The notes: generated by a model from the sequence alone, not told the origin. Shown: positions 33,038 to 52,816, counted from the first letter of the stretch. The stretch: 64,000 nucleotides of DNA from Thaumarchaeota archaeon UBA164 (GCA_002499005.1 DAJU01000001.1:24541-88540); one strand, 5' to 3'. A program made the numbers and translations.

Positions 33038-34348
33038 ATGCACGTTAAGTGCCCTATGCAGAGCAAAGGCTCAGGCATTTCCGGGTTTTATAAGCTATCC
33101 GTTGATGAAAGAAGAAAGCTGCTGGCCAAGGAGTACGGCCTTATCGAGGAGGATCTGAAGGCCCTTGAAACCGGCGGGCTGGGGATTGACGTTGCGGATA
33201 AGATGATAGAAAACGTAATCGGCACAATAGCTTACCCGATAGGCGTTGCTACAAACTTCCTAGTTAATGGGAAGGACGTGCTGGTCCCCATGGCTCTTGA
33301 GGAGGCGTCGGTTGTTGCGGCGGCAAGCAAGGCAGCGAAGATAGCAAGGGCCGGCGGAGGGTTCACAGCAGTTGCTGACGAGCCGGTGATGATCGGGACA
33401 GTTCAGCTTGTCGACGTCAGGGACCCCTCAGAAGCAGTTTACAGGATAAACGAGAAGCGCAACGAAATAATCAGGATGGGGAACGAGGTTCTTCCTGAAA
33501 TAATAAGAAAGGCTGGAGGGTTTAAGGGATACGACCTGAAGGTCCTTTACACCGACTCAGGCCCCATGGTTGAGCTTTACTTTTACGTTCACGTGCTTGA
33601 CGCGATGGGGGCAAACACCGTGGACACAGTTGCTGAAACGCTTGCACCCTATCTTGCCGACCTGGCCGGGGGCAGGTACCTTCTGAGGATAATATCCAAC
33701 TACGCGATAAGGAGAATGGCAAGAGCTCACGCTAGGTTCCCCATAAGCGAGCTTGGGGAAAACGGCAGCAGGGTGGCGCAGGACCTGATACATGCCTATA
33801 ACCTGGCAAGGGCAGACGTGTTCAGGGCCGTTACCCACAACAAGGGCATCATGAACGGAATAATAGCTGTTGCAAACGCTATATTTAACGACACAAGGGC
33901 AATAGAGGCCGGCGCACACGCTTATGCGTGCAGAAGCGGCGGCTACCAGCCCCTTACAAGCTACAGGATAGATGGGGATTATGTGGTGGGACAGATAGAG
34001 CTTCCACTGCAGGTGGCCACAGTGGGGGGCTCTGTGGGGCTTAACAGGGTCAGCAAGGTTGCGCTAAAGCTTATGGGCAACCCCACCTCAAAGGAGCTTG
34101 CTGAAATAATGGCCTCGGTTGGGCTTGCACAGAACTTTGCTGCAATGTACGCCCTTGTTACAGAGGGCATACAGAAGGGGCACATGAAGCTGCACGCAAG
34201 GAGCCTTGCGCTTAGCGCAGGGGCAAGAATAGATGAGGTTGACGAAGTTGTAAGGATGATGATTGAGAAGAACACAATAAGCTATGACGCCGCGAAGGGT
34301 TACCTTGAAAAGCTCAGGTCATCTAAAGGCGCCTCTCAACATCCTTAA
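33038..34348 (+). CDS. hmgA: class II (bacterial-type) HMG-CoA reductase
   Basis: Collinear with Pseudomonas mevalonii HMGR: MIENVIGT, VLVPMALEEASVVAAAS, DAMGANTVDT, THNKGIMNGI, EAGAHAYA, TEGIQKGHMKLHAR. Confidence 0.93.
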   Translation: MHVKCPMQSKGSGISGFYKLSVDERRKLLAKEYGLIEEDLKALETGGLGIDVADKMIENVIGTIAYPIGVATNFLVNGKDVLVPMALEEASVVAAASKAAKIARAGGGFTAVADEPVMIGTVQLVDVRDPSEAVYRINEKRNEIIRMGNEVLPEIIRKAGGFKGYDLKVLYTDSGPMVELYFYVHVLDAMGANTVDTVAETLAPYLADLAGGRYLLRIISNYAIRRMARAHARFPISELGENGSRVAQDLIHAYNLARADVFRAVTHNKGIMNGIIAVANAIFNDTRAIEAGAHAYACRSGGYQPLTSYRIDGDYVVGQIELPLQVATVGGSVGLNRVSKVALKLMGNPTSKELAEIMASVGLAQNFAAMYALVTEGIQKGHMKLHARSLALSAGARIDEVDEVVRMMIEKNTISYDAAKGYLEKLRSSKGASQHP

Positions 34349-36374
34349 CCTTTACCATGAGCACGCCGTTTTCCCTGTAAAGCTCAACTGACGCCAAGAA
34401 CCTGCTTCCCTTTTTTATGAGCGAAGGTGGACCGTTAAAGTTAGCCGGCTCAAGCCTGGCCCTCCACCTGCCGTCTATTATGGCCACGGCGCTTCCGGGG
34501 AACACCTTTTCAATAGTTATCTCCCTTATGTCCCTGCCAGCTGACCTGAGCGCCGAAACAGTCATGGCCCTCCCTGAAAAGATAACGGCCTTCCTTGAGC
34601 TTATAAGCCTTTTAAGGGCGACGTTGGCAACCCCATCGCTGTATCCAAGGGATGCAAGGTAAGACCTCAGCTCCTCAGGAGCCATGCCATCAGATCCGAC
34701 CTCCATGAGCTTCATGTATGCGTCCTCAGAAGCGCTTCTTATTTCCCTCTCAACATCGCCCGGCGCTGGCACGTTGTTCCTCTGCTGCTCCTGCCCCTCC
34801 GGGAACGATGGAAGTCTTCTCAGTATAGGTTGAAGCTTTGAGTTTATCCTTCTTACGATCTCCTTCATTATCTTTGCCTTTCTGATGCTTGAGAAGAGGT
34901 AGGCTGAGTCCAGGCTGCTCTCAGTAAAAAGTATGGTTACCTTTCCGGGCCCCCTTCTTCCGGTTCTCCCCTTCCTCTGTATATACCTTATCTCACTTGG
35001 AATGGGTTCAAAGAATATAACGTGCTCGACAGATGGTATGTCAAGCCCCTCCTCAGCTATTGAAGTCGACACAAGGATGTTTATGCTGCCCTGCTCAAGC
35101 TCCCTTAGCGCCTGAAGCTGCTCGTCCTGGCTCATGCCCTTATCCCATTCCCTTGAGGCCTGCCCCACAAACCTGCCCACCCTTGCCCCTTCAATGCCCT
35201 GAAGCACTTCAACCAGGTGCTGCACCGTTTCCCTGTACTGAGTAAATACAATAACCTTTGACAACGGATTTTCCCTTAGCTGTTCCCTTATAATGTTAAC
35301 CAGGGCACCCACCTTTGGGTGGTCCTCTGAAGCCCTTTCCAGCACGGCCACAAGCCTGGGGTAAAGCTCATCTGAAGCTATAGCTGTGTGGCTGCTTTTC
35401 TCCTCCCTTTCAATCCTTGCCATAAACGATCTCAATGGCACAGCGCCCTGCGTTTCCAGAAGCTCCTTCATGTGGTAAATGCTCATTGCCTCTGACTGAA
35501 CCTTTATAGCCTGGAAGAGCTTCCCCCTGTCCTCCCTGCTGGGATTGGAGTCAAGCTCGTGCCTTAGCCTGTCCCCCAGCTCAAGCAAATCCTTTCTGCT
35601 CACAGATCCAGCCCTCTGGAGGAACCCCTTTTCTGCCAGCCAGTTAAGCCTTCGTCCAAGCATCTCCTCTATAACGCTTCTCGCTTCGGCGTACGAAGGT
35701 GGAAGCTTTACCCTGACCCAGTTAATGTCAACCCTGTTGATGTACGGGCTCACATCTGGATCGGATTCGTCCTTTACAAAGACCTGCTCTATGAATAGGT
35801 TCCTGCATACATCCATAATCCTTTCTTCAGTAGATCCAGGCGAGGCGGTCATTGCAAATATCATGGGGTAGGCTGACCTTTCAACATAAGCCTTAGCTAT
35901 GGAAGTGTAAGGGTAGTCCTTGACCGCCCTGTGTGCTTCATCAAAGACAATAAGGCTGAAGGAGCCTATGTCAAGCCTTCCTTCGTCCACGTCATTTCTG
36001 ACAACCTCCGGTGTTGCAAAGTAAATCCGGGCATCGCCAGCCCATATAGCCTCCCTTACTTCAGGCCTTTGCGTCCCCGTAAGCGCTACGAATGCAGTTT
36101 CAGGAAGGTTCATGAGCCCCGCAAACGTCCTTTTATGCTGATGTGCCAGAGGCCTTGTTGGCGCCATTACAAGCACCTTTGCGTCCCCCTTTTTTCTCAA
36201 CACCTCAGCCGTCAGCAGGAGCGCAATAATTGTCTTTCCAAGCGCAGTTGGAAGTATCGCAAGCGTGTTTTTGCCAAACGAAACGTTTGCAAGGTTAACC
36301 TGGTAGTCCCTGTATTCCACAGCGTTTTCCCTTATCAGGGGGTGTTGCACATAGCGCTTCGTAAACGCCTCCAT
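34323..36374 (-). CDS. hef: Hef/FANCM-family SF2 helicase with no ERCC4 nuclease domain
   Basis: Contains LPTALGKT (motif I), DEAHRA (motif II), the inserted helical domain and QRKGRTGR (motif VI). The C-terminal 180 aa or so show no GDxnERKx3D nuclease motif. Confidence 0.85.
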   Translation of the reverse strand: MEAFTKRYVQHPLIRENAVEYRDYQVNLANVSFGKNTLAILPTALGKTIIALLLTAEVLRKKGDAKVLVMAPTRPLAHQHKRTFAGLMNLPETAFVALTGTQRPEVREAIWAGDARIYFATPEVVRNDVDEGRLDIGSFSLIVFDEAHRAVKDYPYTSIAKAYVERSAYPMIFAMTASPGSTEERIMDVCRNLFIEQVFVKDESDPDVSPYINRVDINWVRVKLPPSYAEARSVIEEMLGRRLNWLAEKGFLQRAGSVSRKDLLELGDRLRHELDSNPSREDRGKLFQAIKVQSEAMSIYHMKELLETQGAVPLRSFMARIEREEKSSHTAIASDELYPRLVAVLERASEDHPKVGALVNIIREQLRENPLSKVIVFTQYRETVQHLVEVLQGIEGARVGRFVGQASREWDKGMSQDEQLQALRELEQGSINILVSTSIAEEGLDIPSVEHVIFFEPIPSEIRYIQRKGRTGRRGPGKVTILFTESSLDSAYLFSSIRKAKIMKEIVRRINSKLQPILRRLPSFPEGQEQQRNNVPAPGDVEREIRSASEDAYMKLMEVGSDGMAPEELRSYLASLGYSDGVANVALKRLISSRKAVIFSGRAMTVSALRSAGRDIREITIEKVFPGSAVAIIDGRWRARLEPANFNGPPSLIKKGSRFLASVELYRENGVLMVKVKDVERRL

Positions 36375-38410: not shown

Positions 38411-38746
38411 ATGAAAGTTAGGATACATGTTCATGCATTTGAAGAGAGAAATTCACTGCTTATATGGTTAAAGGGAAGGCCAATACTGGTTGTCAAGGAC
38501 GGGGAAAAGCTCTACGGAATGGATGCCGTGTGCGCCCATATGGGCTGCGCCCTTTTAACTGAGGTTAAAGGAACCACTGTAACCTGCCCTGCGCATGGGG
38601 CGAAGTACGACGTAAGGACAGGCGAACTTGTTGAGAAGGCGCACGTAAGGCCCGAGGTAATGTGCGAACAGGAAAACGTGGCGCTACCGCTCAAGACCTA
38701 CAGGGTGTCCGTTGGCGAGGACGGCCTTCTTAACGTTGAGCCCTGA
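38411..38746 (+). CDS. small Rieske [2Fe-2S] domain protein
   Basis: Contains the CAHMGC and CPAHGAKYD motifs (CxH...CxxH). 111 aa. Confidence 0.85.
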   Translation: MKVRIHVHAFEERNSLLIWLKGRPILVVKDGEKLYGMDAVCAHMGCALLTEVKGTTVTCPAHGAKYDVRTGELVEKAHVRPEVMCEQENVALPLKTYRVSVGEDGLLNVEP

Positions 38747-38812
38747 AGACACATCTTCAGGCAACTACGCCTTTAGCCTGCAAGCTGCTGGGTTCGCATG
38801 CAATTTTGATAT

Positions 38813-38837
38813 AAATACTTATATCCGATAAGTATAT
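38813..38837. promoter_or_regulatory. imperfect palindrome overlapping the promoter of the RHH-herA-nurA operon (candidate operator)
   Basis: The arms aaatacttat and ataagtatat are separated by atccg. They match at 9 of 10 inverted-repeat positions. The element ends 10 nt before the ATG at 38848. Confidence 0.35.
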
Positions 38838-38847
38838 TGTTGATTAT

Positions 38848-39255
38848 ATGTCAAGCGAAAGAAAGTATACGGGCATAGTTGTTTCCAAGGACATTTACGA
38901 ACGGCTCAGGACACAGGTTGAGAAGAAGTCATCAAAGCTAAGGGCAAGGATTTCAATATCAGACTATGTTGAAAGCCTGATAATAAATAAGATCGAAGAG
39001 GAGGAGCTTCTTTCGGAGGTCGGCCAGTTCCTTTCCTTTGCAGAAAGGAGCGGCGATAAGATATTTATAAATGACTGGGTAAGGGGCAGGATAGCCCCTG
39101 TAAGCCTTAAGGTGAACCCCGACGGGTCGTTCAAGCTTTTCTGCGAGTTTGACAACAGCGACAGCTGCGTGCACGTGGGCTACGCGTATTCTCTTCCAGA
39201 GCTTTACAGGATGCTCAAGGAAAAGGGCATAAAGGCTCAGCCGCAGACGCGCTGA
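38848..39255 (+). CDS. ribbon-helix-helix-like DNA-binding protein with an uncharacterised C-terminal domain
   Basis: The N-terminus YTGIVVSKDIYERLRTQVEKK...RISISDYVESLI shows a CopG/RHH beta-alpha-alpha pattern. I did not recognise the C-terminal 70 aa or so. Confidence 0.5.
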   Translation: MSSERKYTGIVVSKDIYERLRTQVEKKSSKLRARISISDYVESLIINKIEEEELLSEVGQFLSFAERSGDKIFINDWVRGRIAPVSLKVNPDGSFKLFCEFDNSDSCVHVGYAYSLPELYRMLKEKGIKAQPQTR

Positions 39256-39259
39256 AACG

Positions 39260-40714
39260 ATGATTGAAATAGGCAAAGTAGCTGATGGGGCAACTGAAAG
39301 CGGTTGCAGCGTTGTACTGTACAAGGACATGGAAAGGGAGGTCAGAGCGGAGGAACTGGTTATTATAAAGAATGGGGGTTATGATTCGCCAGGCGGGCTT
39401 GTGCTTGGCGTTCTGAGGAAGGGGCTTGGCAAAAACGAGTTCCTTAACCCATCTTCATATAAACCAGACCTCGCATACCTGAAGTACGGCGGGGAACCTT
39501 CCTCAGCAAGGGAGGTTTTTTCATTTTACGTTGCTGTAATAGGTGAGGTTGTAAAAAGGGGCGACAAAAGCGCTGTCACCGTAAACAGGAGAATAATAGC
39601 GCCAAGGTCTCCGGTTTACCTCTTTAACCAGGAGAACCCGCTTGAGCTTTACTTTTCAGGAAGGGAAGGGGTAAGGCCCCTCAGGGCCTTCCTTAAGGGC
39701 CATGAAGGGTGGGCGATGCCAGCAAACTCGAACTATATACCTTATCATGTGGGCGTTTATGGCACCACAGGCTCCGGGAAATCCTGGCTCGCCAGGCACG
39801 TGCTTATACCGTTTTATCACGATGCGGGCTACAGCACGATTGTGCTTGACTGGAGCGGGATGGATTACGCCCCTTATAGCCCCAATGAAGCGCTAAGGCT
39901 TTCTGAGATATCCCAGGATCCGGATTCAGTTCTTGAATACTTTAAGGAGCTGACCCATAACTTTTATGACAACAAAAACGTTGAGCTGGCATTTGAGGAC
40001 ATAGCCTTTGAATGGGGCAACATAGCAGGCAGGAACGCCGGCGAAGCGCATAACGCGGTTGAAAGAAGGCTTGAGGACTTTCCAAATCATTTTGAGATGA
40101 GGAGGGACGTTGCGGATGGGTACAGAAGCATCCTCCGGTTTATCCTGAGAAGGATAACGGTGGAGCGCCTCATGCCGCTTATGGGAAAGATTGGAATTGA
40201 CGAAGTCATAAGCAGGGCCTTTAAGGGGCAGGTAATAGTTGACATGGGGGACCTGCCTTCAGAGATAAAGCTTAGCTTCTTTCTTACGCTTGGCGGAAAG
40301 ATTTACGACATGATAAACAGAGGCGAATTTCAAAAAATGGCTATAATCATAGATGAAGCGCCGCAGTACGCTCCGTTTAAGCCAGATGGCATACAGGCCC
40401 AGACCACCGACATGATAAGGGATCTGGCGGCCCTTGGGAGAAAGCACAACCTTAACCTCACGTTGCTCTCTCAGGGGGTTGCGGGGGAAATAGGGATAAA
40501 CGCCGCCATAAGGAGGAACCTTAACACGAACTTTTACGGGAGACTTCACCCGCTTGATGTGTCCAGCGAGGGTGGCGCCTCCGGCTGGCTTTCCCCATAC
40601 GGGATAACACCTGAATACTTGATAAACCTAGACACCGGGAGCTTTTACTTTGCAGGGCTAATGAACCCCTCACCGGTTCCGCTTTTGATGGAGTTCAGGC
40701 CGACCAGCTCATGA
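39260..40714 (+). CDS. herA: HerA-like (FtsK/HerA superfamily, DUF87-type) ATPase
   Basis: Has a HAS-barrel-like N-terminus (IGKV...VRAEELVIIKN...LVLGVL), Walker A GVYGTTGSGKS, Walker B MAIIIDEAPQY and GRKHNLNLTLLSQG. 484 aa. Confidence 0.75.
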   Translation: MIEIGKVADGATESGCSVVLYKDMEREVRAEELVIIKNGGYDSPGGLVLGVLRKGLGKNEFLNPSSYKPDLAYLKYGGEPSSAREVFSFYVAVIGEVVKRGDKSAVTVNRRIIAPRSPVYLFNQENPLELYFSGREGVRPLRAFLKGHEGWAMPANSNYIPYHVGVYGTTGSGKSWLARHVLIPFYHDAGYSTIVLDWSGMDYAPYSPNEALRLSEISQDPDSVLEYFKELTHNFYDNKNVELAFEDIAFEWGNIAGRNAGEAHNAVERRLEDFPNHFEMRRDVADGYRSILRFILRRITVERLMPLMGKIGIDEVISRAFKGQVIVDMGDLPSEIKLSFFLTLGGKIYDMINRGEFQKMAIIIDEAPQYAPFKPDGIQAQTTDMIRDLAALGRKHNLNLTLLSQGVAGEIGINAAIRRNLNTNFYGRLHPLDVSSEGGASGWLSPYGITPEYLINLDTGSFYFAGLMNPSPVPLLMEFRPTSS

Positions 40715-41859
40715 GCGGGATAGAATGGCAAAAGCTTCCACCAGATCTGCAGTACAGGTTTCTTGCAGAGGCGTCAAACGAAGCAGCAAGGATATCAAAG
40801 GCGATGGATTCACTAAAAAGGCAGGTTGAAGAGGTAAAGGAGGAGATACGCCCTTACCTGAAGCGGATAACTGTAAACGACGACGTCTCTGTCGTGGGCG
40901 CCGTTGATGGGTCAAGGTCCATGACCCCCTCAATGAGGCTTGGTGCTGTATACAGCGTTGCTGCGGCTTATTTTCTATCCCTGAAGGGCAGGGAAAGGGC
41001 TGCTGAAGATGGCCTTGCAACTCAGCTTCGCTGGTCCGAGTCGGACAGCAGGCGCAGAAACATAGCCAGACTTGAGACGCTCATGACTCTGGCTGAGCGT
41101 ACGCTTGCCCTTGAAAAGCTTGGATCGGTAAACTACATGCTGATTGACGGAACCTTCTTTGGCTACCTGAGAAGCGCGGTAAGGGCTCAGGAGGAGGGGC
41201 TTATGGACAGGGAGCTTAAGGGCTGGATAGATGAAATATCCGAAAAGACAATGCGGCTGGTTGAAAGCAAAAGGGCTTTTGCCGTAATAAAGAGGTCTAG
41301 GACAAGGGCGCTTGTAGGCCACCTTTACAGGGCTGGGAGGGCCTCCGTGGCCGAGTTCAGGGGCGCAATAGACAAGTTGCTTTTAACGCTTGCGATGCCA
41401 GAGGGAAGCTACCTGAGATATGATCTGCTTGATAGCGACCATCCGGTGCTGCTGACGGTGTATGCAACAAGACATGAGAGAGGCGCAGACGATTACGCTA
41501 CAATAAAGGAAAACGCGGAAAGGCCTTACAAAAGCTTTTCAGTTCCCACGGATTACCTCTACAAAATTAAGCGCGTTCAGGTCAAGGCATACGAGAGCGC
41601 GCCTGCCTGTGAAATAGAGTACCTGGACGGTTCGTGGGAAAGCCTTGAAAGGCTTATTGGCTCCCGGGGCTTCTTTAACGAAGCCACGGGTCTTCCCCTG
41701 ATAAGCGACATGGTTGACAACCTGGTTACAATACCTCACGGTTTTATAGACGAATACGTTGATGAGGTTATGGCAAAGGCGCTTGAAAGCTCCGGCGGGG
41801 ACGAGCTGGACCTTTACAGGGCATTCTTCTTTTCCATGAACCCGCAGAAGCCCTACTGA
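40711..41859 (+). CDS. nurA: NurA-like nuclease
   Basis: Contains VVGAVDGS and YMLIDGTFFG, the conserved acidic motifs of the NurA domain. The start overlaps the herA stop (ATGA). 382 aa. Confidence 0.65.
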   Translation: MSGIEWQKLPPDLQYRFLAEASNEAARISKAMDSLKRQVEEVKEEIRPYLKRITVNDDVSVVGAVDGSRSMTPSMRLGAVYSVAAAYFLSLKGRERAAEDGLATQLRWSESDSRRRNIARLETLMTLAERTLALEKLGSVNYMLIDGTFFGYLRSAVRAQEEGLMDRELKGWIDEISEKTMRLVESKRAFAVIKRSRTRALVGHLYRAGRASVAEFRGAIDKLLLTLAMPEGSYLRYDLLDSDHPVLLTVYATRHERGADDYATIKENAERPYKSFSVPTDYLYKIKRVQVKAYESAPACEIEYLDGSWESLERLIGSRGFFNEATGLPLISDMVDNLVTIPHGFIDEYVDEVMAKALESSGGDELDLYRAFFFSMNPQKPY

Positions 41860-41860
41860 A

Positions 41861-42478
41861 ATGAGCGCAATAAGGGAACACACCGAAGTTCTTCTCGACA
41901 AACGGCTACTGGAAATACTCAGGCACATCAAGGAGGCAGGTCTTGACTATGGCCTCTCAATATCAAAGAGGCTTCACTTGAGGCTCTGTGATGTGATAGA
42001 GCTGCTCGATGAGCTTGAGGCACGGGGGCTGATCGAAAGGGGAGGCACTTCGTCCCTAAAGAACACTGAGGCAAAGATGAAGCTTAGCGATGAGGTTCAC
42101 AAACATCACACGTATTACAGGCTTACCCGAGAGGGCGAGCTTCTCGTAAGGGAGGCAAGGGACGATGAAGCCCTTGCGTCCGCATATACGGACGTCCTAA
42201 GGAAAAGGCCCTGTATCTTAGAGGCCCTTAAAGTTGCAGAAGCCGCTGGCATTGATCATGCGGGGACTTTCTCAAGGCTTATGCGGATAAGCGTTGAAGA
42301 GGCGGAGAGAAGGCTTGAGGAACTTGAAGGAATGGGGCTTGTGGAAAAGGTAAAGGAAAAAACAATCAAGTTTGGCGAAAGGAAGGCCAAACCAAAGAAG
42401 GAGACAAGAACGCACCACTTTTACTATCGTATAACTAGGCTTGGCGAGAGAGTTGTGCGCAGGCTTGAAAGGGCCTGA
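41861..42478 (+). CDS. tandem winged-helix (MarR/TrmB-like) DNA-binding protein
   Basis: Two wHTH repeats are present, each ending in a wing with HHTYYRLTREGE or HHFYYRITRLGE. The start lies 1 nt after the nurA stop. Confidence 0.6.
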   Translation: MSAIREHTEVLLDKRLLEILRHIKEAGLDYGLSISKRLHLRLCDVIELLDELEARGLIERGGTSSLKNTEAKMKLSDEVHKHHTYYRLTREGELLVREARDDEALASAYTDVLRKRPCILEALKVAEAAGIDHAGTFSRLMRISVEEAERRLEELEGMGLVEKVKEKTIKFGERKAKPKKETRTHHFYYRITRLGERVVRRLERA

Positions 42479-50451: not shown

Positions 50452-50820
50452 ATGGCAGAACAGGAGCCGCTCAGGATAAGGCTTAACACCTGGTTCAGGT
50501 TGCCCCCTCTAGGCAAGCTTACGTTTTCCGAGCTGATGCGGGCAGGCGTAACTTACGACTCAAAGAACGGGTTCATGATCACTGAAAGGGCAAACCTGTC
50601 TGCCATAAAGGGGATACTGGAGAGAGCCCTCAGGAGGAACGTGTACTATGCGTTTAACTGCATAATATGCGGGAGGGAGTCAGACTGCTCTACCTGCAGC
50701 TTTAAGTACACGTGCCCAGTTGAGGAAGCAGGGGGCCGTTGCATATGCGATAAATGCTACGCTGAAAAGAGCATCCTTGATTACTTTTCAGCTCAGAGAT
50801 CAATAATTTCTGGCAACTAA
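50452..50820 (+). CDS. hypothetical Cys-rich protein
   Basis: The C-terminal cluster is CIICGRESDCSTCSFKYTCPVEEAGGRCICDKC. 122 aa. I recognised no family. Confidence 0.45.
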   Translation: MAEQEPLRIRLNTWFRLPPLGKLTFSELMRAGVTYDSKNGFMITERANLSAIKGILERALRRNVYYAFNCIICGRESDCSTCSFKYTCPVEEAGGRCICDKCYAEKSILDYFSAQRSIISGN

Positions 50821-51434
50821 CAGGATCTGGCCGCAGCAGTAGCAGCTGCATGTGCACGAAACAGGGGCTCGGGGAGCCGGTGGCCCAGTAAAAGGGATTT
50901 AACAAGGTTAATCGACTCTTCAAGCGAAATCATGTGCCCAGGGCTTACAAATATTCGCCTCCTTCCTTGCCCAATAACTGCCGCGACTCTTTCATCTTCA
51001 ATTAAAATAAAGCCTTTCTCCTCTCTGCCATACAGCACCCTCTTTGCGACGCCAACGCTTGGCACCCCCATTACAACTCCAAAATGCGATGCGCTGCCAA
51101 AGCGCCTTGGGTGCGCTATCCCGTGCCCATCAACCAAAACAGCATCAGGCTTAGCTGTTAGCCTCAAATATGCGGACGCCATCGCCCCAACCTCTCTGAA
51201 ACCCAGAAACCCAGGCACATAAGGCACCTGCTCTTTTACCGGATGGACCTTAACCTCCAGGGTCCTGCCCTCCTTTGTAGAGAAAAGCGCTGCGGCCCCA
51301 AAAGCCATTCCACAGCCGTAGGCGACGTCAAGCCCAGCAACTAACGCGACCTCAGATGCCCTTATACCTGAGAGCTTGACAAGCCCAGAAAGGGTCAGCT
51401 GCGCTTTAACTGCCTTTTCAGCTAAAAACGTCAA
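50817..51434 (-). CDS. nfi: endonuclease V
   Basis: Contains VAGLDVAY, GFLGFREV and VDGHGIAHPRRFGSASHFGV. Confidence 0.88.
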   Translation of the reverse strand: MTFLAEKAVKAQLTLSGLVKLSGIRASEVALVAGLDVAYGCGMAFGAAALFSTKEGRTLEVKVHPVKEQVPYVPGFLGFREVGAMASAYLRLTAKPDAVLVDGHGIAHPRRFGSASHFGVVMGVPSVGVAKRVLYGREEKGFILIEDERVAAVIGQGRRRIFVSPGHMISLEESINLVKSLLLGHRLPEPLFRAHAAATAAARSC

Positions 51435-51970
51435 CTTTGCATGGCCTTCCCAAGAGCGCTTTCAAACGCAGCCGCCTGACCTTTGTCGATGATGTAAACG
51501 TCAACCTCCTTAAGCGATTTTGGTCTTATCGCGCTCAGCGCCAGATAAAGCGCCTTTGCGGAGTCCTCTATAGGGAAGCCATAAATTCCTGATGATATTG
51601 CCGGCACCGCTACAACTGAGTCGCCAAGCCTGTCCGAGGCCTCAAGCGCGGCCCTGTAAGCCGTAACGAGATCATCTAGGCTTCCCTCACCGTAAATAGG
51701 CCCCACCACGTGTATTATCCTCTTTGCGGAAAGCTTTCCAGCGGTTGTAATTGCGGCCTCCCCTCTTCCTAAAGGGCCATGCCTTTTAACAAACTCATCG
51801 CTTTCCACCTGAATTTCACGCCCTCCCCTTCTAACAAGCGCCAGCGCCACCCCGCCTCCGTGCTTCAGAAACCGATTTGCAGCGTTAACTATCGAATCAG
51901 CGACTGCAAGTGAGATGTCGCCGTTTATCACCCTAACGCTGATGCCGTTAACGGTTATATTCTGTACCAT
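51431..51970 (-). CDS. macro domain (ADP-ribose/O-acetyl-ADP-ribose-binding) protein
   Basis: Contains ADSIVNAANRFLKHGGGVALA and ISSGIYGFP. The stop overlaps the nfi start by 4 nt. Confidence 0.88.
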   Translation of the reverse strand: MVQNITVNGISVRVINGDISLAVADSIVNAANRFLKHGGGVALALVRRGGREIQVESDEFVKRHGPLGRGEAAITTAGKLSAKRIIHVVGPIYGEGSLDDLVTAYRAALEASDRLGDSVVAVPAISSGIYGFPIEDSAKALYLALSAIRPKSLKEVDVYIIDKGQAAAFESALGKAMQS

Positions 51971-52078: not shown

Positions 52079-52816
52079 ATGGAAGACCAAATTCAGCTTG
52101 CCTCAAGGGCGCTTGCTGGCGCATCCTGCGCGGTGGCCCTTACAGGCGCAGGCATAAGCACGGCCAGCGGGATACCTGACTTCAGGGGCCCTCAGGGCGT
52201 CTGGAGGCGTGTAGATCCTGAAAAGTTTAACATAAGCTACTTTATTGAAAACCCGGATGAGGCATGGGATCTGATAAGAGAAGTTTTTATCCCAAAAGGT
52301 GAGGTAAAGCCAAATAAAGCTCACGCCGCGCTTGCTGAGCTTGAAAGGGCCGGCGTCCTTTGCTCTGTAATAACCCAGAACATAGATGGCCTGCACCAGG
52401 CCGCCGGGTCAAAAAACGTAATAGAAATTCATGGCAACATCCTGAGGTCCTACTGTATGAGCTGCGGAACCAAATTTAAAACGCTTGACCTTATAAGCGG
52501 AAGGGGAGCTCCAAGGTGCAGTTCATGTGGTGGACTCGTAAGGCCGGATATAGTTTTCTTTGGGGAGCCGCTTGGGGAGCCCTTTGAAGCTGCCGCAGGC
52601 ATCTCAAGCAGGTCAGATGTCTTTCTGGCGGTGGGCACTTCGTTGGCGGTGTCGCCGGCAAATTTGCTACCAGTTTACGCAAAGCGGGCTGGCTCAAAGC
52701 TGATCATAATAAACCAGGGGTCTACAGAGCTTGACCACATGGCTGATATAAGGATAGAGGGAAGGGCCGAGGAGGCGCTACCTAGAATAGCGGAGCTTGT
52801 CCTGCGGCTCAGGTGA
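52079..52816 (+). CDS. cobB: NAD-dependent protein deacylase (sirtuin, Sir2/CobB type)
   Basis: Contains GAGISTASGIPDFRG, TQNIDGLH and a zinc ribbon (CMSCG...CSSCGG). 245 aa. Confidence 0.92.
   Translation: MEDQIQLASRALAGASCAVALTGAGISTASGIPDFRGPQGVWRRVDPEKFNISYFIENPDEAWDLIREVFIPKGEVKPNKAHAALAELERAGVLCSVITQNIDGLHQAAGSKNVIEIHGNILRSYCMSCGTKFKTLDLISGRGAPRCSSCGGLVRPDIVFFGEPLGEPFEAAAGISSRSDVFLAVGTSLAVSPANLLPVYAKRAGSKLIIINQGSTELDHMADIRIEGRAEEALPRIAELVLRLR

Follow-up and report, generated by a model that had tools for sequence, protein, structure and literature searches.

Two adjacent genes for a HerA-like ATPase and a NurA-like nuclease, packed between two small genes for putative DNA-binding proteins, raise the question of which machine they encode and whether their small neighbors belong to it. 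The locus lies in Thaumarchaeota archaeon UBA164, in a stretch of 64,000 nucleotides (GCA_002499005.1 DAJU01000001.1:24541-88540) that was analyzed as a whole and is called the window here. Four open reading frames (ORFs) follow each other on the plus strand: p1, a small protein with a ribbon-helix-helix (RHH)-like N-terminus; p2, the HerA-like ATPase; p3, the NurA-like nuclease; and p4, a tandem winged helix-turn-helix (wHTH) protein. A preliminary description of the locus had read them as one module lacking Mre11-Rad50, either a self-regulated end-resection machine or a system derived from a conflict or a plasmid. Reading the coordinates and junctions in the sequence bore out the four ORFs and their gaps of 4, -4 and 1 nt. 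The motifs named for p2 (GVYGTTGSGKS, IIIDEAPQY and LLSQG) and for p3 (VGAVDGS and LIDGTFFG) are present in the translations. The conserved entity is the two-gene pair p2-p3, and p1 and p4 are recent lineage-specific neighbors from independent families. We favor, with some reserve, the reading that the pair is a divergent HerA-NurA paralogue, inherited pairwise and serving chromosomal DNA-end processing in parallel to the Mre11-linked pair, with p1 and p4 as local additions.

Judged by its sequence, p2 is a HerA-clade P-loop translocase or helicase paralogue. It matches the Pfam model of the HerA central domain (PF01935/DUF87) with 39.4 bits at a cut-off of 23.2, and the FtsK and TrwB models were not significant in the Pfam search (E about 0.1). 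All significant PDB sequence and profile matches are HerA proteins (9x1l, 4d2i, 9c1m and 8xau), in agreement with the HerA placement given in the preliminary description. Among these, 4d2i is the S. solfataricus HerA and 9X1L the T. kodakarensis HerA (PMC12977600). In a 26-sequence family alignment, the Walker A residues G168, T170, G171, G173, K174 and S175 and the Walker B residues D365 and E366 are invariant, as are many further columns. The LLSQG motif had been called divergent from the motif usual in HerA. S-Q-G indeed replaces the Q-R-P type, but S-Q405-G406 is invariant across the same family alignment, where R418-R419 is also present. The N-terminus had been described as HAS-barrel-like. 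The NCBIfam HerA model aligns to p2 residues 18-203 and T. kodakarensis HerA to p2 profile positions 39-350, and both of these sequence alignments extend into the N-terminal region.

The partner p3 is a NurA-fold nuclease paralogue, with an activity predicted from conserved residues and a structural model. The Pfam NurA model (PF09376) matches p3 with 35.8 bits (cut-off 21), and most p3 homologues carry a precomputed match to the same model. The AlphaFold2 model, built on a 31-sequence alignment, has a predicted local distance difference test score (pLDDT) of 86.3 and a predicted template modeling score of 0.84. Its ten best Foldseek matches in the PDB are all NurA structures, including 2ygk (E 8.6e-10, template modeling scores 0.51/0.60), as expected from the NurA fold proposed earlier. 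The next matches, EndoV and PIWI, belong to the same RNase H-like fold class. Aligning the p3 family profile with S. solfataricus NurA (2YGK) brings VDGS, ER..A and DGSF into register. D66, E129 and D146 of p3 fall on the IDGG, LELSLAL and MDGS segments, and their counterparts there are presumably the catalytic residues of the S. solfataricus enzyme. The family invariants are D66, E129, D146, D221, E303, D333, D336, E352 and a C-terminal N-P-Q-K tail.

The linkage of the two genes is conserved far beyond the window. More than 200 p2 homologues were found at 36-56% identity, and the named ones are all Thermoproteota. Scanning GTDB species genomes gave 46 loci with relatives at 36% identity or higher. 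At every locus with both genes complete (45 listed), the nurA-like gene directly follows the herA-like gene at a spacing of -29 to +17 nt. Carriers are non-Thermoprotei Thermoproteota: Tardisphaeria, Bathyarchaeia, Nitrososphaeria including Caldarchaeales, Korarchaeia, Brockarchaeia and Hecatellales. Two loci, L016 (Brockarchaeota DRTY-1.bins.18) and L017 (Nitrososphaera sp. MAG7), agree in all gene coordinates and encode near-identical HerA proteins; mis-binning or contamination has probably given one of the two MAGs a wrong label. The window organism itself groups with Tardisphaeria (formerly 'Marsarchaeota') and not with Thermoplasmata. The comparison with Thermoplasmata proposed in the preliminary description is thus misplaced, as the relatives are all Thermoproteota with Tardisphaeria closest. 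Toward the Thermoprotei, the nearest relative found is a Pyrodictium/Pyrodictiaceae HerA-like protein (L049, 5971-7524; 27% identity to p2), which has no adjacent nurA and adjoins ABC-transporter genes.

The small genes p1 and p4 do not share this conservation. Neither occurs beside the pair within ±6 kb in the 45 related loci, as judged by tblastn, phmmer and a hidden Markov model (HMM) of 125 p1-family sequences run over all ORFs. Tardisphaera miroshnichenkoae (closest named relative, 55%) and a Tardisphaera-like assembly (55-56%) carry the pair without p1 or p4, followed by a cellulase gene. Clustering the flanking ORFs of the related loci revealed no conserved third partner and lineage-level synteny only (methyltransferases, threonyl-tRNA synthetase, a nitroreductase-like gene). 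The flanking genes are of housekeeping type and differ by lineage. The conserved entity is the pair only, because p1 and p4 are missing from the related loci and present elsewhere in unrelated contexts. Universal conservation of all four genes, together with the pair being the only one in its genome, had been named as a sign of plain housekeeping. Wide conservation is in fact seen for a core of two genes and not for the arrangement of four.

How the pair relates to the well-known HerA-NurA machine is a matter of likeness in design and distance in sequence. Canonical HerA-NurA (S. solfataricus 4D2I/2YGK; P. furiosus NurA 3TAI/3TAL/3TAZ; T. kodakarensis 9X1L-9X1P) has the same two-protein make-up from adjacent genes. 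Intact Walker motifs, the NurA fold and the D/E/D core in register are common to both. The window pair differs by its very low similarity (about 12-15% identity between p3 and canonical NurA in structure alignments), by the order herA before nurA, the absence of mre11-rad50, the S-Q-G of p2 and the NPQK tail of p3. The NCBIfam equivalog models of the canonical proteins are far from being reached. With NF040819 (HerA of double-strand break repair), p2 reaches 17.9 bits where the cut-off is 970, and p3 scores 26 against 400 and 15.1 against 650 with the NurA models NF041033 and NF041032.

These scores bear on an alternative in which p2-p3 is the only HerA-NurA of the organism, equivalent to the canonical end-resection pair, with mre11-rad50 elsewhere in the genome and a plain housekeeping role. 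The wide conservation of the pair, its housekeeping surroundings and its intact catalytic residues would suit such a role, and the NCBI pipeline names relatives of p3 'DNA double-strand break repair nuclease NurA'. The tiny equivalog scores speak against it, as does the occurrence of a distinct Mre11-linked operon in a class that also holds carriers of the pair. In a Nitrososphaeraceae metagenome-assembled genome (MAG), genes for NurA (415 aa), HerA (695 aa) and an Mre11-type phosphoesterase (471 aa) stand in a row (L070, 4067-8832). The operon shares the Pfam families NurA and DUF87 with the window pair and differs from it in gene order (nurA-herA-mre11 versus herA-nurA). Its unusually long HerA resembles p2 over 35 residues around the P-loop only, and its NurA has no similarity to p3 detectable by BLASTP. 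The MAG belongs to the class Nitrososphaeria, like some MAGs with a window-type pair, so both kinds of pair exist at least at the level of the class. Nitrosocaldus is likewise reported to encode Mre11, Rad50 and HerA-NurA (PMC5797428). With the several subclades and the two-copy MAG described below, these observations make it unlikely that the pair is the sole HerA-NurA of its host. Among the distant HerA loci examined, only L070 has the nurA-herA-mre11 operon. Three other candidates for a canonical operon were rejected: in a Sulfolobales locus (L060) HerA stands beside a TFIIB-like zinc-ribbon gene, the Pyrodictium HerA (L049) is stand-alone beside an ABC transporter, and in a Bathyarchaeota locus (L057) HerA follows a type IV pilus-like ATPase and membrane genes. 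A literature search on the DNA repair genes of Tardisphaera, Conexivisphaera and Bathyarchaeota returned nothing useful.

The preliminary description rightly noted that mre11 and rad50 are absent from the window. Neither gene, nor a second HerA or NurA, appears among the precomputed Pfam calls (covering about 7-64 kb) or, for the first 7 kb, by ORF size and tblastn. The only window ORF of at least 800 aa encodes isoleucyl-tRNA synthetase, and tblastn with a Mre11-linked set of NurA, HerA and Mre11 gave no match in the window. The same absence holds for the relatives. No mre11-rad50 lies within ±6 kb of the pair in the 45 loci, and an Mre11 tblastn query matched none of the fetched loci except L070. 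The missing linkage had been considered unusual. Bacteria such as Deinococcus and Thermus generally have stand-alone nurA-herA pairs. Among archaea, Pyrobaculum (Thermoproteales) has three or more vertically inherited nurA-herA pairs unlinked to mre11-rad50, one of them linked to csm6 and CRISPR arrays (Bernick et al. 2012, PMC3396285). These pairs are a precedent for several such pairs per genome, and the window pair differs in being free of csm6 and CRISPR. Hence, the lack of linkage is not exceptional, and p2-p3 would add an uncharacterized paralogous HerA-NurA pair to a setting where multiple pairs per genome are already known.

The four ORFs and the signals around them are listed in Table 1.

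Table 1. Four-gene region of the window and putative transcription signals (positions counted from the first nucleotide of the window).
Feature	Position	Strand	Size or placement	Basis
p1	38848-39255	+	135 aa	ORF call
p2 (herA-like)	39260-40714	+	484 aa	ORF call
p3 (nurA-like)	40711-41859	+	382 aa	ORF call
p4	41861-42478	+	205 aa	ORF call
A/T-rich promoter-like stretch	38808..38835	+	5' of p1	sequence read directly
TATA-like GATATAAATA	38808-38817	+	about 35 nt ahead of p1 ATG	sequence read directly
Perfect 8-bp inverted repeat ATACTTAT-N5-ATAAGTAT	38815-38835	+		inverted-repeat scan
TATA-like TTTATTTAAA	42489..42498	+	about 20-28 nt ahead of pfkB ATG (42517)	

Packing and signals are the main arguments for a dedicated, self-regulated four-gene system, in which p1 and p4 would be specific DNA-binding subunits or regulators. 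The junctions are tight: TGAaacgATG between p1 and p2 (4 nt), an ATGA overlap between p2 and p3 (-4 nt) and TGAaATG between p3 and p4 (1 nt). TATA-like stretches stand ahead of p1 and pfkB, and none is evident ahead of p2 or p4 when the sequence is read directly, which makes a single transcript from p1 to p4 plausible. The TATA-like TTTATTTAAA is likely a separate pfkB promoter marking the downstream end of the unit. The single transcription unit asserted in the preliminary description is therefore plausible in its spacing and signals. However, the same-strand run exceeds the four genes, with the end of a Rieske gene 101 nt upstream and the start of pfkB 38 nt downstream. Other neighboring genes of the window are also closely spaced (-4, -10 and 31 nt), and in so compact a genome genes on one strand often follow each other at short distances. 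Two short Logan contigs from relatives at about 80% identity preserve the order Rieske-p1-herA-nurA, and a p1 gene upstream of the herA-like gene is found only there and in the window. The absence of p1 and p4 from the 45 other loci and from Tardisphaera makes a four-gene system improbable, and the claim that the two small genes bracket the pair as dedicated components fails, as only the herA-like and nurA-like genes are linked in about 45 loci. The palindrome 5' of p1 is no help to such a system either. Its right arm is not kept in the relative at about 80% identity (L079), and we rejected it as an operator, a role that was a guess. A second perfect 8-bp hairpin, CCTGAAGA-N4-TCTTCAGG at 38742-38761, overlaps the end of the Rieske gene and may mark the end of that transcript.

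The origins of p1 and p4 point in the same direction, as both belong to families that occur apart from the pair. p1 has no match in Pfam or NCBIfam. Its relatives came to light by exhaustive HMMER searching, which gave 143 clusters (at 50% identity) of about 130 aa aligning over the full length, compared to one close homologue by word-indexed search. Across 125 family sequences, C99 and C107 are present in 125/125 and H109 in 123/125, and D, C, H or E occupies position 102 in 124/125. This defines a metal-ligand signature in the C-terminal domain (C99-x2-D102-x4-C107-x-H109; in the family C-x2-[D/C/H]-x4-C-x-H), and p1 is probably zinc-binding. An RHH nature of the N-terminus is weakly supported by a strand at 8-13 and helices at 14-25 and 37-46. 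In an hhalign comparison with CopG, the strand-helix-helix elements are in register (E 0.0037, probability 9%). A few family members weakly match RHH-type models (DUF6290, VapB, RHH_5 and RelB). The AlphaFold2 model of p1 is poor (pLDDT 44.7, from a two-sequence alignment). In Conexivisphaera calida and other Nitrososphaerota (L096-L101), p1-family genes stand divergent from blocks of hypothetical genes, some near a transposase or ParB_N gene, and one locus (L098) has two copies. Such surroundings look like mobile or variable regions, and they count against p1 being part of a dedicated system. In the window, p1 is a lineage-specific neighbor of the pair and probably a local regulator. The family of small proteins of about 130 aa is undescribed, a new by-product of the analysis, and it merits a Pfam entry.

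By its sequence, p4 consists of two DUF2250 winged-helix domains in tandem, and its place beside the pair is lineage-specific. The Pfam DUF2250 model (PF10007), a wHTH domain, matches in two stretches with 187.4 bits (cut-off 24.4). The internal repeat is visible by tblastn too, in line with the two wHTH repeats described earlier. In 12 metagenome loci, orthologues of p4 (41-54% identity) lie amid unrelated metabolic genes, with no herA or nurA within 5 kb of them, which again argues against a four-gene system. A weak p4 match 3' of nurA in one related locus (L077) proved to be a cellulase fragment. In two further loci (L093, 4959-6410 and L094, 4251-5702), a 483-aa ORF combines a p4-related DUF2250 wHTH domain with a metallo-beta-lactamase/RNase Z-like one.

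A defense function against viruses or plasmids would make the pair a system of the HerA-plus-effector type with NurA as effector. Sir2-HerA and DUF4297-HerA anti-phage systems likewise place a HerA-clade ATPase beside an enzymatic partner. The best PDB profile matches of p2 include 9c1m and 8xau, which are probably HerA chains of HerA-plus-effector defense complexes. PADLOC gave weak, partial HerA and mad8 matches to p2 (at most 40 bits). The multiplicity of paralogues and the mismatches between tree and taxonomy would fit a defense role too. Furthermore, a nurA-csm6-herA CRISPR cluster is known in Thermoproteales, and a defense role has been proposed for canonical HerA-NurA (PMC3396285; PMC12977600). 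Nevertheless, p3 has no PADLOC match, the partner of p2 is NurA and not Sir2 or DUF4297, and identities of 36-56% across classes are unusually high for defense genes.

The surroundings of the pair bear on this point too. The window carries genes for MCM, ribosomal protein S10, isoleucyl-tRNA synthetase, V-ATPase subunit I, HMG-CoA reductase, deoxyhypusine synthase and transporters, at an even GC content. No integrase, cas, csm6 or defense gene is among its Pfam calls, a repeat scan found no CRISPR or other repeat array in the 64 kb, and Rfam, tRNA and tandem-repeat scans of the window were empty. Searches with p2 and the family profile in plasmid, phage and IMG/VR collections gave no matches, and the flanks in other genomes are housekeeping genes that depend on the lineage. 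The window is ordinary chromosome. Because of these housekeeping surroundings, the lack of relatives on mobile elements, the weak PADLOC matches of p2 and the absence of any for p3, a defense or plasmid origin is disfavored, and a defense function is very improbable. The conflict or plasmid derivation offered by the preliminary description finds no footing in this context.

Other genes of the window might invite a functional connection. A Hef/FANCM-like superfamily 2 helicase (34323-36374, minus strand, 683 aa) with DEAD, Helicase_C and helical-bundle domains and no recognizable nuclease domain lies 2.5 kb upstream of the pair region on the opposite strand. This is a further gene of DNA-repair type close to the pair, and the linkage is probably coincidental. 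Further downstream, genes for Endonuclease V (50817-51434, minus strand), a Macro-domain protein (51431-51970, minus strand) and a SIR2-family protein (52079-52816, plus strand) form a cluster. The position of SIR2 beside Macro suggests an ADP-ribosylation/de-ribosylation pair.

A parallel HerA-NurA pair for DNA-end processing is the explanation we prefer, and its working can be sketched by analogy with the S. solfataricus and T. kodakarensis complexes. p2 would form a hexameric ring that translocates along or unwinds duplex DNA from an end, and would feed the strands into a p3 NurA dimer, which would digest them. The residues needed for both the ATPase and the nuclease activity are all conserved. 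The most probable role would be chromosomal DNA-end processing or another housekeeping step of DNA metabolism, apart from the Mre11-linked pair. Its placement behind p1 and ahead of p4 would be particular to the window lineage. The four genes are probably co-transcribed from a promoter 5' of p1, and p1 may act on the A/T-rich region there as a repressor of the operon.

Several points weigh against this explanation. Taxa are mixed in several subclades of the HerA tree, and Bathyarchaeia, Hecatellales and Caldarchaeales are each spread over more than one of them. Two copies of the pair (L026 and L048; 44% and 38% identity to p2), which belong to different subclades, come from a single MAG (SRP104967_co1_30). 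Mixed-taxon subclades and a two-copy MAG suggest old duplications or transfers within the family, which fit a purely housekeeping role less comfortably. Neither p2 nor p3 reaches the cut-offs of the canonical equivalogs. The mechanics of p2 may differ, given S-Q-G at a site where HerA and FtsK usually have Q-R-P. Coexistence with a canonical Mre11-linked pair was seen at class level only. It is strict gene adjacency that suggests an interaction of p2 with p3. Finally, a real local functional link between p1 and the pair is conceivable in view of the tight packing and of the Rieske-p1-herA order in the relative at about 80% identity.

The pair might also be a so far unstudied DNA-processing machine in its own right, conserved at 36-56% identity in most non-Thermoprotei classes of Thermoproteota, of which Nitrososphaeria has the Mre11-linked HerA-NurA as well. 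In the window lineage it would be controlled by a new RHH-plus-zinc regulator family. We regard this as a tentative possibility. The job of the pair may differ from classical end resection because both proteins have signatures of their own, the S-Q-G of the ATPase and the NPQK tail of the nuclease. Such a machine may act in replication-fork or chromosome-end processing, or in the degradation of foreign DNA.

HerA-NurA has been proposed to do in archaea what long-range end resection does in eukaryotes, and its role in vivo is debated. A 2026 study of the T. kodakarensis complex could not reproduce the generation of 3' overhangs (PMC12977600). Relatives of the window pair are annotated only as 'DUF87/ATP-binding protein' and 'NurA'. 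For annotation, a pair of the window type should not be taken by default for the repair machine linked to Mre11-Rad50, and small DNA-binding genes that flank it should not be read as components of the system. A well-conserved, tightly linked second pair across classes of Thermoproteota, several of them without cultured models, is a reasonable target for biochemistry, for which the cultured carriers Tardisphaera and Conexivisphaera would be suited.

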